From a bacterium (GTDB taxonomy: Bacteria > Patescibacteriota > Minisyncoccia > Phycocordibacterales > Phycocordibacteraceae), in contig JAHFMR010000005.1 in NCBI GenBank assembly GCA_023267755.1, positions 1 through 46,350 on the forward strand: a stretch of 46,350 nucleotides of DNA, in the 5' to 3' direction. Positions 1-17,700 of this stretch are shown here, piece by piece. The notes under the pieces were generated by a model, which did no database searches, had not been told where the DNA came from, and saw nothing but the letters and a program-made list of their open reading frames with translations. The translations under genes were made by a program, and so were the position numbers. The number at the start of each line of letters is the position of its first letter. Position 1 is the first letter of the stretch.

Positions 1-53
1 TGGAGGCTCTCGCCTCCTACTCCTGGGGTCAGAACTTCTGGCCGGATCAGGTC

Positions 54-2389: not shown

Positions 2390-3796
2390 ATGCGTTCGCA
2401 CCACTATTTTGACTGGGAAGGATTCCTCTTCGGGGCGAAGCTGCTAGTAGTTGTCGTCATCGCCGTTTTCGGGGGCCGCTTCGCCCTTGAGTACGCCGCC
2501 ACATCTCACGATGCATCCCCGTCGCTCGTACTTATCCAAGAGACGCGCCCGGCGACCCCACGCGCGCTCGCACTCTCCCTCGCCACCACCACATCAAAAC
2601 ACATTATCCGCACACTCACTTTCAATGACGTCGTTCCGCCAACTGGGAAATTTATCGGCATCGATCTCTCCACAATGGTGCTCACCCTCTATCAAGACGG
2701 CGCAGCTATCGCCAAGTATCCGATACTCGCCAAGGGAGAGGCGGGTTCGCTCTACGAAACGCCTGCCGGCTTCTATACCGCACTGTCTAAAGAGCCGGAT
2801 TACTTCGATGCGAATGCGCAGATTGATCTACCGTGGGAGATACGGTTCTCCGGTAACTACACTATCCACGGATGGCCTCTCGCCGCTGACGGCTCCCCTG
2901 CTGATACAGCGCACGCGGGCGGTGATATCCGACTCTCTACCGACGACGCGAAGAGCGTCTACGACTTTGCTCTCGTAGGCACTGGCATCTTCGTCTATGA
3001 CCCCGCGCGTCCTGCTCCCGCGTCACTCGTGCTCGACGCGCCTCCCGCTCCCTCTATATCGGCGGCTGCATATCTGGTCGCCGATATCGACACCGGGGAT
3101 GTCTTCCTCGAGCGCGGCGCAGGAAATGTCCTCCCGATTACTTCTGTCACTCGGCTAATGACCGCACTCACTGTGAACGAAACGCTTCCCGCCGACACGC
3201 AAGTCGCCCTCCCGCATGGCACCTTAGCCTCTGTGAGAAAAGACGCAGCGAAGACAAAAGAGATGTTCCTCGCGGGTGACTTGCTCTATCCGCTCCTCTT
3301 GGGGTCGAACACCACTGTCGCCAACAGCCTCACTCAGACGTACGGCACTCAAAGCTTCATCGGTTGGATGAACGCTTCGGCAAAAGCGCTTGATATGTCC
3401 TCGACCCACTTCTCTGATGCCCTCGGCACCACGACTGCGAACACGTCGACTACTGACGACCTCTTCCATCTCGCGGCCTATCTCGCAAACAACAAATCAT
3501 TTATCCTTGAGGCTCTGCGTATGCCGGAGAAGGACTTAATTGCCGGGAGTGGGAATGTCTACCGCGCGAACAGGGCGACGACACCCGAGCCCGCGATGCT
3601 TTCTGTCTCTTCTCTCTTTATAAACGGTATCGAACGTCGCGTGGCGATTGTTGTCTTACGTTCCAATGATGCCGCTGCCGACACAGCCGCCCTCACCGCC
3701 TGGGTTAATCAGTCAGCCGAGAGGGGGGCTGATCTTGCTGGTACTACCTGTGTCGCCTGCGCACTCTCTGCTCCCTATCGAAAGATTCAGGAATAG
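2390..3796 (+). CDS. membrane-anchored fusion of a YkuD (L,D-transpeptidase)-like domain and a peptidase S11 (D-Ala-D-Ala carboxypeptidase)-like domain; both catalytic motifs look altered
   Basis: I chose the ATG at 2390 (MRSHH, then a TM segment) over the ORF-track start at 2330, which would overlap the divergent DedA gene. YkuD-like IHGW...HAGGDIRL. S11-like AAYLVADIDTGDVF...PITSVTRLMTAL. Confidence 0.8.
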   Translation: MRSHHYFDWEGFLFGAKLLVVVVIAVFGGRFALEYAATSHDASPSLVLIQETRPATPRALALSLATTTSKHIIRTLTFNDVVPPTGKFIGIDLSTMVLTLYQDGAAIAKYPILAKGEAGSLYETPAGFYTALSKEPDYFDANAQIDLPWEIRFSGNYTIHGWPLAADGSPADTAHAGGDIRLSTDDAKSVYDFALVGTGIFVYDPARPAPASLVLDAPPAPSISAAAYLVADIDTGDVFLERGAGNVLPITSVTRLMTALTVNETLPADTQVALPHGTLASVRKDAAKTKEMFLAGDLLYPLLLGSNTTVANSLTQTYGTQSFIGWMNASAKALDMSSTHFSDALGTTTANTSTTDDLFHLAAYLANNKSFILEALRMPEKDLIAGSGNVYRANRATTPEPAMLSVSSLFINGIERRVAIVVLRSNDAAADTAALTAWVNQSAERGADLAGTTCVACALSAPYRKIQE

Positions 3797-14658: not shown

Positions 14659-14864
14659 CGTGGAGTTATCCACACCACTTCGCCCTACAGGCTTCGCGGT
14701 GCGCGGCAGAAATATTGGTGCCCCACCTCTGTCTCCTGTCTGACTTGGTGAGACTCCATAGGAGTTCCTTGGCGAGCGCCAGCGTTATGGGACGGGGCAC
14801 CTCGGTCAGGACTTCCCGCAAGCTCCGGGCACTTGACTCCTTGCAGGGTATTATAGTAGTATCG

Positions 14865-14873
14865 TGTATAAGT
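14865..14873 (+). promoter_or_regulatory. extended -10-like box (TGtATAAGT) upstream of the low-GC islet genes
   Basis: Box lies 32 nt upstream of the ATG at 14906. Confidence 0.4.
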
Positions 14874-14905
14874 GTATTCGTTTATTACAAGCTAACACTT
14901 TACAT

Positions 14906-15607
14906 ATGGCCCTAAAAGATCATGTTACAGATTCTGCAAAACTTCGAGAGGAAGAAATCGAGGTAATTATATCTGATTTAATAAAGTACGACCCTGCGAA
15001 TAAGGCAATCGTTCTCCTTCCAAAAGCACAAAGTCTTCCCGTTGAGAAGAAAATACTACTCTATCTTGTCGCTCTGCGTGGTTGGCATTTCGTGGTGAAA
15101 GAAGATCCTCCAGCAACAGATGCCCTTCCCAGGGAGATAGAGCGCGCCACGGGTGTCCGTGGAGGTACCCTTAGGCCAGCTCTACGCGGGCTAGTTCATT
15201 CAAGAATGCTCGATTGCAAAAATGGACGCTATGAAATCCCCGCGCATAATCTTGGTCGAGTCCGTGAGGCCATGACCAGCGGAGGGAGCACGTTGATAGC
15301 CCGTCAGCCCCTCGGGTCAGCCTCAAAAGGAACGAAGGCTAAGCCTCCGAAGGTTAGTAAGAAGGGTTTTGGCGCCAAACCTTCTTTAAAAGAATCTTTC
15401 GACGAACTGGTAGCTAAAAATTGGTTCCAAGGAGGTAAAACTACTACCCAATTAAAAGATAAGCTGGAAGAGTCCGCAGTGATTGTTCCGATGTCTCGAC
15501 TCCCTGTTTACTTGCTCACAGCAGTGCGCGGCAAGCCTCAAAAACTCAAGCGTGAAAAGAAGGATGTTGGGGGTAAGGATATTTGGGTTTATTCGCCCGT
15601 CAAATAA
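14906..15607 (+). CDS. hypothetical protein with winged-helix-like modules and a Lys-rich linker (islet gene 1)
   Basis: 233 aa from the ATG at 14906. The C-terminal about 65 aa (FDELVAKNWFQGGKTTTQLKDKLEE...IWVYSP) resemble the N-terminus of the next protein. Visibly AT-richer than the core. Confidence 0.7.
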   Translation: MALKDHVTDSAKLREEEIEVIISDLIKYDPANKAIVLLPKAQSLPVEKKILLYLVALRGWHFVVKEDPPATDALPREIERATGVRGGTLRPALRGLVHSRMLDCKNGRYEIPAHNLGRVREAMTSGGSTLIARQPLGSASKGTKAKPPKVSKKGFGAKPSLKESFDELVAKNWFQGGKTTTQLKDKLEESAVIVPMSRLPVYLLTAVRGKPQKLKREKKDVGGKDIWVYSPVK

Positions 15608-15608
15608 C

Positions 15609-16289
15609 ATGTCGGGTCAGCTCAAATCTGCTCCGGAACTATTACGAGGTCTTTGGGAGGAACGGTTCTTTGAGCATTCCCGGACCCTGCCTGAGATTAC
15701 AGAAAGGTTGGCAGCCAGCGGTTATCACTTAACCGCCTCTACACTAGGCGTTGCTTTGATTCGTTCTGTGAGAACTGGCAGGTACCTTCTTCGTACCGGC
15801 AGGTTAGGAAAGTGGGTATACACGCAGAAACATCCGTTTTCTGCGCCTTCCGCAGAAACGAGCGAGATGATTGTTCAATATGAGTTCCATCCGCGCATAA
15901 AAGAAGTTTCACTCACGCAATTCAAAAATAAGGATTTCAAAAGTGCGATATTGAACGCTTTTATTGAAGTGGTGACTCAGGTGAAAGTGAAAACCGGACA
16001 TCCCAAAGATAAAAATGGAAAGGACTTGGACGGCGACGATCTGATGAACAGGATCTTCGGCTGCGATGGGATTCAAGTACCAACAGTGAAGTTTAATACC
16101 CTCGCTGACGGCTTGGATCGCGCAGAACAGCGAGGACTCATGTATTTATACAAAGGTGTAGTTGGAGTACGCGACAAGAAGGCTCATTTGAATTTTATTC
16201 AAAATGATCCTTTGAAGACAATTGAGTACTTGAGTTTGGCAAGTCTCCTACTGAGGCTCCTAGACGAGAATCCGGCAACCGAAGCCTAA
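15609..16289 (+). CDS. TIGR02391 (Hypoth_Ymh)-like domain protein with N-terminal wHTH-like module (islet gene 2)
   Basis: The ATG at 15609 lies 1 nt after the previous stop. The C-terminal half FHPRIKEV...FKSAILNAFIEV...AEQRGLMYLYKGVVGVRDKKAHL...EYLSLASLLLRLLDE matches my memory of the TIGR02391 pattern. Confidence 0.72.
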   Translation: MSGQLKSAPELLRGLWEERFFEHSRTLPEITERLAASGYHLTASTLGVALIRSVRTGRYLLRTGRLGKWVYTQKHPFSAPSAETSEMIVQYEFHPRIKEVSLTQFKNKDFKSAILNAFIEVVTQVKVKTGHPKDKNGKDLDGDDLMNRIFGCDGIQVPTVKFNTLADGLDRAEQRGLMYLYKGVVGVRDKKAHLNFIQNDPLKTIEYLSLASLLLRLLDENPATEA

Positions 16290-16319
16290 AGCATCTCAGT
16301 CACCTGGCTTAGCACTAGA

Positions 16320-16393
16320 TGGTGCGGGATAGGAGAATCGAACTCCTGCCTACTGCTTGGGAAGCAGTCGTCCTACCACTAAACTAATCCCGC
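16320..16393 (-). tRNA. tRNA-Gly(CCC), CCA encoded
   Basis: GCGGGAT-TA-GTTT-AGTGGTA-GGAC, anticodon loop TTCCCAA, T-arm AGGAG-TTCGATT-CTCCT, 3' ACCA. Confidence 0.95.
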
Positions 16394-16742
16394 AAAATAA
16401 CCTTTCAGTCTTCTTTTCAAATACCCTCTCCCAAATCCCGTCTTCAATTGAAGTTCTCTTTCTCGCGCATCCTTTTTGTTCAGACAGGCCTCATAGTAGA
16501 CCAAATTTATGGTATCAAACTTCTTGGTTGTGTCTACGTTTTTTGACTTATGCTTTAAGACCCGTTCTCGAAGATTGTTCGTAAAGCCTATATACAAGTC
16601 TGTTTCTAGACCTTTCTTTTTACACAATAAGACGTAGGTGTAATACATATGTTGTTCTACTCCGCCAAAAGCTCGTAGAGCATTTAGGCGGACCCGCCCC
16701 AATGGCGCTGCGCCTTTGGGCGGGCACTAAACTAATCCCGCA
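16377..16742. repeat. 18-nt perfect direct repeat (tRNA-Gly 5' end) flanking the GIY-YIG gene
   Basis: cactaaactaatcccgca occurs at 16377-16394 and 16725-16742. The distal copy is an orphan tRNA 5' fragment followed by a GC-rich hairpin (CCCGCCC...GGGCGGG). Confidence 0.9.
16379..16648 (-). CDS. small GIY-YIG nuclease family protein (UPF0213/YhbQ-like)
   Basis: MYYTYVLLC...LYIGFTNNLRERVLKH...ERELQLK. The last five codons and the TAG stop (F-A-G-L-V-stop) are encoded by the first 15 nt of tRNA-Gly. Confidence 0.85.
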   Translation of the reverse strand: MYYTYVLLCKKKGLETDLYIGFTNNLRERVLKHKSKNVDTTKKFDTINLVYYEACLNKKDARERELQLKTGFGRGYLKRRLKGYFAGLV

Positions 16743-16773
16743 TATTTCATACACAGGGCGGTCCTGTGTATTT

Positions 16774-17112
16774 TTAAAACCAACTGAGGAGCTTCTGCCA
16801 CCAGGACTGCTCTGGAGTCGCTGTGGCGACCACTGGCGGTACCACTACGATAACCTCTTCTCCCGGGCGCGCAACCCCAAAGGACGATCGGATAGCCGTC
16901 TCCTTGCCGCGCGGCGTATCGAGCGCAGCTAGGTTCGCCACGAGGGTCGCCTTACGCTTCTCGAGCTCGTTATACTGCCACTTGGCCTCGCTCGCTTGCG
17001 AGACAGCGATGTGTGCCTTCTCAAAGAGCCCCCAAATGCTTGTGGCGAGCCAGAAGGAAATAAGAAGGAGCACCCCGATCAGGAGCCCTCGCTGTGCTTG
17101 TTTGGCGCGCAT
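16774..17112 (-). CDS. septum formation initiator family protein (FtsB/DivIC-like)
   Basis: 112 aa: N-terminal TM, a coiled-coil segment, then the conserved-looking AIRSSFGVARPGEEVIVV tail. Confidence 0.7.
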   Translation of the reverse strand: MRAKQAQRGLLIGVLLLISFWLATSIWGLFEKAHIAVSQASEAKWQYNELEKRKATLVANLAALDTPRGKETAIRSSFGVARPGEEVIVVVPPVVATATPEQSWWQKLLSWF

Positions 17113-17146
17113 ACCCCCCAGTATACCGTATCTTAAAAGGCTCTGA

Positions 17147-17178
17147 TTGACAGTGGTGATACGAAGTATATACTTCGT
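17147..17178 (+). promoter_or_regulatory. sigma70-like promoter with overlapping palindromic operator for the TA operon
   Basis: TTGACA (17147-17152), 16-nt spacer, TATACT (17169-17174). A perfect 18-nt palindrome ACGAAGTATATACTTCGT (17161-17178) covers the -10. ATG lies 8 nt downstream. Confidence 0.55.
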
Positions 17179-17182
17179 CTAT

Positions 17183-17434
17183 ATGACTACCAGCGTCGTT
17201 TTCAAAATAGATGAGAAGCTGAAACAGCGTGCAATGCGCCGCGCCCACCAAGAAGGCACCACGCTTAGCGCCTTCCTTAAATCGGCCACACACGACTTCG
17301 TCTCGGGAAATCTCCGATTCGGCATCCACTCCGCAAAAGAAGAGCAGGCTGTTGACTACGCTCTCGCGACATATGAGGCAGAAAAGCGCGGTGGCAAGCT
17401 TAAGAAGTTGTCGTCGCTCTCGGCACTTGCTTAG
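17183..17434 (+). CDS. RelB/DinJ-like antitoxin
   Basis: 83 aa. The N-terminal VVFKIDEKLKQRAMRRAHQEGTTLSAFLKSA pattern is typical of DinJ/RelB-type antitoxins. It sits directly upstream of the toxin gene. Confidence 0.7.
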   Translation: MTTSVVFKIDEKLKQRAMRRAHQEGTTLSAFLKSATHDFVSGNLRFGIHSAKEEQAVDYALATYEAEKRGGKLKKLSSLSALA

Positions 17435-17439
17435 ACGGT

Positions 17440-17700
17440 ATGGAGATTCTGACTACGTCTGGATTTAGACGGAAGTTTAAGAAGCTCGGAAAAGAAATTA
17501 AAACAGCCGCTATTGAAAGAGAGCTGCTGTTTCGAGATAACCCATTCGATCCAAAACTCAAAACGCACAAATTGCACGGTAAGTACCGGCGTTACTGGGC
17601 GTTTTCCGTCACGAATACGTACCGTATTATGTTCGACTTCATTACCGAACATTCGGTCGCCTTTATTGATATCGATACGCACGATCTCTATCGAGATTAG
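17440..17700 (+). CDS. RelE/ParE-superfamily toxin (RelE/StbE/YafQ-like)
   Basis: 86 aa. FRRKFKKL...KTHKLHGKYRRYWAFSVTNTYRIMFDF...VAFIDIDTHDLY. Confidence 0.8.
   Translation: MEILTTSGFRRKFKKLGKEIKTAAIERELLFRDNPFDPKLKTHKLHGKYRRYWAFSVTNTYRIMFDFITEHSVAFIDIDTHDLYRD

Follow-up and report, generated by a model that had tools for sequence, protein, structure and literature searches.

The window analysed here, a stretch of 46,350 nucleotides (nt) comprising positions 1 to 46,350 of contig JAHFMR010000005.1 (NCBI GenBank assembly GCA_023267755.1) from a bacterium of the Phycocordibacteraceae (Patescibacteriota), contains a GIY-YIG nuclease gene lodged between a gene for tRNA-Gly(CCC) and a duplicate of the 5' part of that tRNA. 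The approximately 330 bp between the duplicated segments (16395-16724) probably constitute a small selfish cassette, made up of a hairpin doublet (HH), a short stub of tRNA sequence and the nuclease gene, that has entered tRNA-Gly(CCC) and spreads by homing-like, nuclease-promoted recombination. That the cassette is a mobile element is supported by the comparisons below; its mode of movement is what we infer from them. The cassette of this ultra-small groundwater bacterium is a member of a widespread and apparently undescribed family of tRNA-invading elements.

The cassette and its empty sites

An 18-nt sequence (CACTAAACTAATCCCGCA) is found in two exact copies (Table 1) and nowhere else in the window, even with three mismatches allowed, against a chance expectation of 0.03. 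The tRNA gene located by ARAGORN and Rfam lies on the minus strand, so the repeat corresponds to nt -1 to 17 of tRNA-Gly(CCC), as a preliminary description made from the sequence alone had stated; the possibility, raised there, of a dispersed repeat is excluded. On the minus strand, the divIC-like gene is followed by 31 nt, the distal orphan copy (T plus GCGGGATTAGTTTAGTG, 16742-16725), hairpins H1 and H2 of HH, the heptamer GTAGAAC, the spacer AACAT and the ATG of the nuclease gene (16648), and the intact tRNA follows the nuclease open reading frame (ORF) without any spacer; the non-coding part of the cassette amounts to 76 nt. At 32 nt beyond the divIC-like gene, the orphan copy occupies the place where the native tRNA begins. 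The preliminary description rightly saw the orphan as an old 5' fragment of the tRNA and noted a GC-rich hairpin after it, but the hairpin is not single and the fragment is not a bare 18-mer: it continues for 7 nt beyond the second hairpin (GTAGAAC, nt 18-24, differing at one of seven positions from GTAGGAC in the present tRNA). The orphan as a whole is a remnant of the old tRNA, nt -1 to 24, split in the D-loop between nt 17 and 18 by the precise insertion of 64-nt HH.

The divIC-like gene served as the anchor for finding empty sites. Eighty loci encoding an orthologue were compared, as the preliminary description had advised, and in 77 of the 78 that were informative tRNA-Gly(CCC) begins 3-103 nt after the divIC-like gene, with no GIY-YIG gene; the remaining locus (L119, loci being designated by L and a number) has a GIY-YIG gene at tRNA-Gly. 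The next genes are usually tRNA-Arg(CCT) and tRNA-Phe(GAA), as in the window. DNA runs from the source aquifer likewise contain contigs of related genomes in which the tRNA 5' end is fused straight to the divIC-like gene. A metagenome scan for an empty allele of the window's own species returned only an unrelated nested-tRNA locus (L288). Together, the empty orthologues, the orphan at the native position of the tRNA, the aquifer contigs and the low G+C content of the nuclease ORF (37% versus 54% for the window, a difference of 17 points) indicate that the cassette is an insertion, in agreement with the earlier proposal of a mobile cassette in the D-loop that left the old 5' fragment behind and the tRNA intact.

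A reading without mobility, in which the nuclease gene has long been resident as a leader gene of the tRNA operon and the 18-mer arose by local duplication or by chance, is scarcely credible. The tight overlap of ORF and tRNA is conserved in many genomes, which would speak for such residence, but the 77 empty loci already contradict it, and the chance expectation for the 18-mer, the presence of the gene at different tRNAs in different genomes and its G+C content so far below that of the host all count against it.

Occupied alleles of the window's locus were found in L161, L001, L002 and L119 in addition to the window itself. The nuclease of L161 is 81% identical to that of the window and the HH junction is also at nt 17|18, while L001, L119 and L002 have the junction at 12|13 beside ORFs closely related to the 17|18 class. 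At the divIC/tRNA-Gly locus of L113 the hairpin pair is present and the ORF absent. In L001, L119 and L113, HH is fused to the last codons of the divIC-like gene, the stop codon of which has been lost; the end of the divIC-like gene (GAATTGGTTT) is similar to nt 4-13 of tRNA-Gly, and a deletion at this microhomology may therefore have joined the orphan to the end of the gene.

Table 1. Coordinates of the cassette and adjoining features in the window.
Feature	Position	Strand	Evidence
Intact tRNA-Gly(CCC), functional (rebuilt or retained) copy	16320..16393	-	ARAGORN; Rfam RF00005, 69.5 bits, full length
GIY-YIG nuclease ORF, 89 codons plus stop	16379..16648	-	ORF list; Pfam; conserved residues; AlphaFold2
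Proximal copy of the 18-nt direct repeat (tRNA nt -1 to 17)	16377..16394	-	Exact repeat match
Distal orphan copy of the 18-nt repeat, 5' part (nt -1 to 17) of the old tRNA	16725..16742	-	Repeat match; orthologous loci
Hairpin H1 of HH (CCCGCCC..GGGCGGG), directly after orphan nt 17	16693..16724		Folding; covariation; model R1
Hairpin H2 of HH (TCCGCC..GGCGGA), mirror image of H1	16661..16692		Folding; covariation; model R1
Stub GTAGAAC, old tRNA nt 18-24, directly after HH	16654..16660	-	Comparison with present tRNA
Spacer AACAT, 5 nt, from stub to ATG	16649..16653	-	Sequence
divIC-like gene, conserved upstream neighbour, outside the element	16774..17112	-	Weak DivIC profile match; orthologous loci

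The nuclease and the hairpin doublet

The nuclease ORF has no stop codon of its own. It ends TTT GCG GGA TTA GTT TAG, as first described, and its final 15 nt are tRNA nt 1-15, which supply the last four sense codons and the TAG (nt 13-15). The ATG at 16646-16648 is taken as the start, in preference to an upstream TTG, because homologues begin at the same MYYTY. The product was correctly recognized as a GIY-YIG protein (Pfam PF01541, 49.6 bits against a cut-off of 22.6, E 5e-13), and the catalytic Tyr of GIY, the Tyr of YIG, the Arg, the His and the metal-binding Glu are conserved; Y5, Y19, R29, H33, R64 and E65 are invariant in 35 aligned sequences. It consists of a bare single catalytic domain of 89 amino acids, for which AlphaFold2 gives a confident model (pLDDT 93.7) of the alpha/beta GIY-YIG fold. 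The nearest structures by Foldseek are UPF0213 protein BH0048 (1zg2), the catalytic domain of At-HIGLE (7wme; TM 0.68, root-mean-square deviation 2.0) and Slx1, followed by the N-terminal domain of UvrC, all with weak E-values (0.008 or more); by sequence, UPF0213 is the only match in PDB, and a weak one (E 0.33).

The nuclease family has 672 members at E <= 1e-5 in a 90%-identity collection and 2001 representatives at E <= 1e-3 in a 50%-identity library, bearing only such names as "GIY-YIG nuclease family protein" or "putative endonuclease". Searches with the nuclease gave no matches in NCBIfam or PHROGs and only marginal ones in PADLOC. No homologue of the window protein was found in phage records, and viral contigs contain a single relative (L167, in the order ORF, hairpin, tRNA-Lys).

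HH consists of two adjacent 32-nt hairpins (16724-16693 and 16692-16661), the second mirroring the first. Each has a 6-bp G+C clamp, a one-nucleotide bulge, three A-T pairs, a 1x1 mismatch and a variable tip, the conserved mismatch being A-A in one hairpin and T-T in the other. In an alignment of 24 sequences, 93.7% of cells are paired, a level reached by none of 500 shuffles and well above that of slid controls (34-53%), and 18 of the 22 pairs show compensatory changes on both sides. G-T pairs (7 of 527 cells) are not in excess over A-C pairs (5), and covariance model R1 scores the window HH equally on the two strands (68.6 and 69.6 bits); the absence of a G-T excess and the equal strand scores point to a structure at the level of DNA rather than to one RNA. 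HH is presumably selected as a DNA structure, either a cruciform or a hairpin on either strand. Folded as DNA, the window HH has a free energy of -25 kcal/mol (z = -4.2). Cross-pairing of the 5' arm of H1 with the 3' arm of H2 and of the 3' arm of H1 with the 5' arm of H2, in a cloverleaf or four-way arrangement, was tested and rejected in favour of two independent hairpins, as it was no better than shuffles (78.3% versus 76.7% paired). A search of 15800-17300 against Rfam at E <= 1 found no family that matches HH. When genome contigs were scanned for the junction pattern TTNGGCGGACCCGCCNAA, nearly all matches were chance occurrences in GC-rich genomes, the sole real one being L208, which is the contig of L005.

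Related elements at other tRNA genes

Small GIY-YIG genes abutting tRNA genes with duplications, which the preliminary description had advised looking for in the genome, recur in numerous genomes and at numerous tRNAs. Of the 80 closest homologue loci, most belong to Patescibacteria; the 39 closest were analysed for tRNA context, 36 of them informatively. A tRNA on the same strand overlaps the end of the ORF or begins within 16 nt of it in 31 of the 36, and in 3 others a second hairpin insertion sits between ORF and tRNA. The anatomy of the window (orphan, HH, short stub, ORF, intact tRNA) is found in approximately 35 loci of Patescibacteria, with 12 anticodons and four insertion positions; the target tRNAs are Gly (CCC, TCC, GCC), Val (CAC, GAC), Ile (TAT), Lys (TTT), Glu (TTC), Gln (CTG), Thr (GGT), Asp (GTC) and Ala (GGC), and several genomes have two copies at different tRNAs (L011, L020). 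A copy of the 5' part of the tRNA almost always lies upstream of the ORF; in about 20 loci 13-39 nt of it match exactly, and in others it has decayed. The ORF stops inside the tRNA in 27 of the 36 loci, in 22 of them at the conserved U8-A9-G10 (TAG), and translated 5' ends of tRNA-Gly form the C-terminal tails of 84 of the 120 closest proteins in a large protein collection. More distant homologues in other phyla have neither a tRNA nor hairpins beside them.

In at least 18 loci the tRNA sequence runs on without a gap from one flank of HH to the other (n|n+1), and no nucleotides are duplicated at HH. The junction indices are 12|13, 17|18, 21|22 or 34|35 (about 12/13, 18/19, 21/22 and 35/36 in standard tRNA numbering), which place HH in the D-loop, at the boundary of D-loop and D-stem, or between bases two and three of the anticodon. 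The stub to the right of HH is 5-12 nt long and mostly identical to the host's own tRNA (for example CAAACT in L012, CAAGCAT in L007 and 12 nt in L014); stubs in L018, L011 and L006 match another tRNA allele, and the orphan or stub is foreign to the host tRNA in L018, L011, L006 and L023. In 7-8 of approximately 21 loci the duplication reaches 3-5 nt upstream of tRNA position +1, which is above chance. A fixed right-end sequence of the element was looked for; 0 to 13 nt follow the conserved Y-F/L codons, with no sharp terminus. In a neighbour-joining tree of the nucleases, the Val/Ile class forms a clade, as does a class with a single long hairpin (below), and three junction positions are intermixed among the Gly elements.

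One class of insertions lies in the anticodon loop, and tRNA genes are the classical integration sites of integrase-driven elements and hosts of group I introns, so the 18-mer might be viewed as an att-type duplication, or the nuclease as the homing endonuclease of an intron; either is highly improbable and already contradicted. There is no integrase, only one 89-amino-acid GIY-YIG ORF in 330 bp between repeats, and the duplicated side is the 5' side (nt -1 to 17), not the 3' side. The likeness to tRNA-targeting integrative elements drawn in the preliminary description stands as an analogy, since those elements (with an integrase, and an attP that holds a 3' part of the tRNA) also yield a partial direct repeat of the tRNA and an intact copy, but fails as to enzyme, duplicated side, size and the location of the junctions in loops. 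As for an intron, the Rfam search (E <= 1) gave no intron or ribozyme match (only the tRNA, and one chance-level match elsewhere), 76 non-coding nt are too few for a group I core, and the presence of an uninterrupted tRNA makes splicing unnecessary. Group I introns of bacterial tRNA anticodon loops, which often carry GIY-YIG genes, resemble one class of the elements in location, but have an intron RNA core and keep the tRNA functional by splicing rather than by duplication.

It could also be supposed that two independent parasites are present: HH, a miniature palindromic element that would insert by itself into tRNA-like sequence and be tolerated only in redundant fragments, and the GIY-YIG gene, a separate tenant whose adjacency is secondary. 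Solo copies of HH do exist, one of them (L020 774-844, 67 bits) with no tRNA within approximately 900 nt and no adjacent GIY-YIG gene; the orientation of HH relative to the ORF varies (the window and L161 are reversed with respect to the index-34|35 class); and HH takes differing positions beside closely related ORFs at the same locus. This explanation is nevertheless improbable, as HH and the ORF start are no more than about 10-40 nt apart in almost every member of the family, the stub has a constant length relative to HH, some solo copies (L028, L113) retain remnants of ORF ends and are therefore deletion derivatives, and no HH was found, apart from one derivative, in approximately 450 kb of DNA of nuclease-free relatives.

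Degenerate and repeatedly invaded loci accompany the complete ones. The ORF-less copies in L113 and L028, which keep HH together with the remnants of ORF ends, and the decayed orphans display the invasion, decay and loss that are characteristic of homing endonuclease genes. A second orphan and HH lie between the ORF and the live tRNA in L003 and L009, and L016 looks nested. ORF-less mirror forms occur in L014 (3347-3610), L020 (2636-2770) and L029 (3329-3460), in the order intact tRNA, spacer of 7-13 nt, stub of 5-8 nt, HH, and an orphan 3' part running towards the 3' end of the tRNA, which extends to the encoded CCA in L014 and is truncated in L029; L014 has two such units in tandem. In L006, the HH-bearing 5' part of the old tRNA and its last 16 nt enclose another tRNA-Gly, which is complete and of different sequence.

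In a sister group of nucleases (L037, L038, L056, L066, L042; L167), one long hairpin (CCTGCCCGC..GCGGGCAGG) replaces the doublet, and the targets are tRNA-Lys, Glu, Gln, Gly(GCC) and Ala; in L167 (390-460) the ORF and tRNA-Lys are separated by the hairpin. Contigs frequently stop at the ORF or a little beyond it (L002, L005, L015 and many homologues), and most homologue contigs are shorter than 2 kb; metagenome assembly seems to be disrupted by the element or by the tRNA repeats.

Other rearranged tRNA genes came to light. In L083, L105 and L155 (approximately 3337-3500), orphan tRNA-Gly nt 1-24 is followed by CGGCATTCG(N)TTTTTGT, a complete tRNA-Gly and the inverted complement ACAAAGTNCGAATGCCG, with neither a GIY-YIG gene nor HH, an arrangement that is a different kind of tRNA replacement. 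L093 and L140 have a D-arm fragment (GTTTAGTGGCAGAACCGG) downstream of the tRNA. In L288 (8270-8560), the anticodon arm of one tRNA-Gly contains a second, complete tRNA-Gly(CCC) with a 13-bp inverted repeat (CCCCGTTAGAAAT..ATTTCTAACGGGG) on its flanks, and approximately 130 nt of hairpins lie in the D-loop of the outer tRNA.

The neighbourhood of the cassette in the window has further peculiarities. Between tRNA-Arg(CCT) and tRNA-Gly(CCC) are two plus-strand ORFs (14864-16289; G+C content 46.5% versus 54% for the window), one of which matches Hypoth_Ymh (PF09509) and PADLOC Aga_HEPN (E 4e-9); the spacing of the two tRNAs in relatives ranges from about 350 to 1500 nt. This pair appears to have entered the tRNA cluster in a separate insertion unrelated to the cassette, possibly as a defence gene. 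Two small plus-strand ORFs between lepA and the divIC-like gene (17147-17700), the second weakly similar to the toxin-antitoxin toxins YafQ/HigB, also look inserted, since lepA directly adjoins the divIC-like gene in L161.

Movement, expression and relation to known systems

In the homing-like process that we favour, the nuclease would nick or break an unoccupied tRNA gene at a loop position, and an occupied allele would serve as the template for repair of the break, its orphan fragment and intact tRNA acting as the two arms of homology, with co-conversion of flanking tRNA sequence. HH would be a cis-acting DNA structure needed for homing or for control of the nuclease. The SLX1/HIGLE/UPF0213 type of fold suggests that DNA shape would be recognized, not sequence.

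Several observations weigh against this process. The predicted nuclease, at 89 amino acids, has no DNA-binding domain that could confer sequence specificity. The intact tRNA of an occupied allele keeps the presumed target, and re-invaded loci show no immunity. Insertion position does not track nuclease phylogeny among the Gly-targeting elements. Host-matching stubs, and duplications that reach 3-5 nt upstream of +1, are compatible with simple homing only if the donor was conspecific, and the frequency with which tRNA species and position have changed implies de novo insertions beyond homing alone. In the DNA runs from the source aquifer, neither an occupied/empty pair within one strain nor an excision joint was found.

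A live rival to homing, though a less likely one, is a transposition-like process of de novo insertion into suitable tRNA genes. Structure-specific cutting at the tRNA boundary, and again within a loop or slightly beyond it, would be followed by filling in, to give a long target duplication (about -5 to n+5..12) that leaves one tRNA intact; HH would act in cis as the end of the element or as a site of recombination. In favour of this process, the orphan and stub mostly agree with the host's own tRNA, also at very different tRNAs (L012, L007), duplications extend upstream of +1 in more loci than expected by chance, closely related nucleases frequently differ in position and tRNA species, the mirror elements of L014, L020 and L029 duplicate the loop-to-CCA end, and the fold of the nuclease is that of structure-specific enzymes. 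Against it, HH lies inside the duplicated host segment and not at its edge, so that a single staggered-cut event gives the wrong order; the element has no second HH-like end; strand transfer is not known for GIY-YIG enzymes; and the foreign stubs and orphans of L018, L011, L006 and L023 fit copying from a donor. The host-specific stubs, upstream-reaching duplications and frequent switches speak for additional de novo insertions, with long target duplications, alongside homing. The two routes are inseparable by sequence alone.

More tentatively, and with considerable doubt, the cassette might represent a new class of mobile element, in which an SLX1-like GIY-YIG enzyme would recognize by shape both the cloverleaf or cruciform of the tRNA gene and its own HH, with duplications that rebuild the tRNA and with a nuclease dosage gated by RNase P. 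If so, recognition of shape would open the loops of many different tRNA genes to the element.

Since the ORF and the tRNA leave no space between them for a promoter, transcription of the tRNA must either traverse the ORF or begin at a promoter within the ORF; the only candidate in a promoter scan, a weak one, is inside the ORF (16536-16509). A 19-nt hairpin (ACACAGGGCGGTCCTGTGT, 16751-16769) lies between the divIC-like stop codon and the orphan, and its T-run is on the plus strand only, leaving no obvious stop to divIC-like transcription entering the cassette. The only evidence of expression is a 161-nt metatranscriptome contig from the same sample inside the ORF (16445-16604), a single contig of low depth that may be DNA carry-over. 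The nuclease mRNA would be the 5' leader of the tRNA, and cleavage by RNase P at +1 would take the stop codon off the nuclease mRNA and so limit production of the nuclease. Competition between tRNA maturation and translation termination of the nuclease on one transcript, as envisaged in the preliminary description, is plausible, and would fit the 27 of 36 loci with a stop inside the tRNA.

The principle of an endonuclease ORF that brings a substitute gene piece is already known from fungal mitochondria, where mobile ORFs (mORFs) carry a replacement gene terminus, as in atp6 of Allomyces macrogynus and atp6, atp9, cox2 and nad3 of Glomus (PMC3630166). Like the cassette, mORFs are endonuclease genes (GIY-YIG in Glomus atp9) in an essential gene; a duplicate of the displaced gene end allows a working gene to persist while the native end is orphaned; the ORF may continue the reading frame of the host gene and lack a stop codon of its own; and presence or absence is variable between relatives (PMC3630166). 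Unlike mORFs, the cassette is located in a bacterial chromosome, targets a tRNA, duplicates the 5' end instead of the 3' end, encodes a bare catalytic domain of 89 amino acids, has a covarying two-hairpin module at its junction, and has given rise to ORF-less and 3'-orphan mirror forms. The Seg endonucleases of phage T4, such as SegB in a tRNA gene cluster, are free-standing GIY-YIG enzymes that promote break repair with co-conversion of flanks (PMC2330249), but possess DNA-binding domains, are encoded between genes, and have neither a tRNA duplication nor a hairpin module.

SLX1 and HIGLE are structure-selective nucleases that cut branched DNA such as Holliday junctions and flaps (PMC9071465). 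SLX1, At-HIGLE and UPF0213 (YhbQ-type; PDB 7cq2, 7wme, 1zg2) provide the closest folds and the closest PDB sequence to the modelled nuclease, and branched-DNA cutting by such a fold would suit cruciform or cloverleaf DNA; these proteins are, however, repair enzymes rather than parts of mobile elements, and the sequence similarity is marginal. HH itself resembles the imperfect hairpins of REP/BIME with RAYT, IS200/IS605 and integron attC, with their conserved bulges and mismatches, variable tips, inverted doublets and conservation of shape over sequence. Those systems employ HUH (Y1) transposases or a tyrosine recombinase, none a GIY-YIG enzyme, and none rebuilds a tRNA; the sole protein of the cassette is the GIY-YIG nuclease, and no HUH (Y1) transposase is encoded there. 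In the literature searched, nothing was found on GIY-YIG genes abutting tRNAs in these bacteria, or on the HH module. What appears to be new is the tRNA-loop target, the side that is duplicated, the minimal SLX1-like nuclease, and the hairpin doublet, which covaries and also exists in ORF-less and mirror forms.

The cassette is a bacterial, tRNA-directed counterpart to the mobile endonuclease ORFs of mitochondria, a parasite that lives inside an essential and often single-copy tRNA gene without splicing, by carrying or creating a substitute gene piece. Its family accounts for tRNA fragments and for assembly breaks near tRNA genes in Patescibacteria genomes, and suggests a possible function for part of the large, uncharacterised UPF0213/YhbQ-like family of GIY-YIG proteins of approximately 90 amino acids. 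The combination of a conserved DNA hairpin module with a tiny nuclease is easily tested biochemically, and the stop codon inside the tRNA offers a natural test case for the coupling of RNase P processing and translation.

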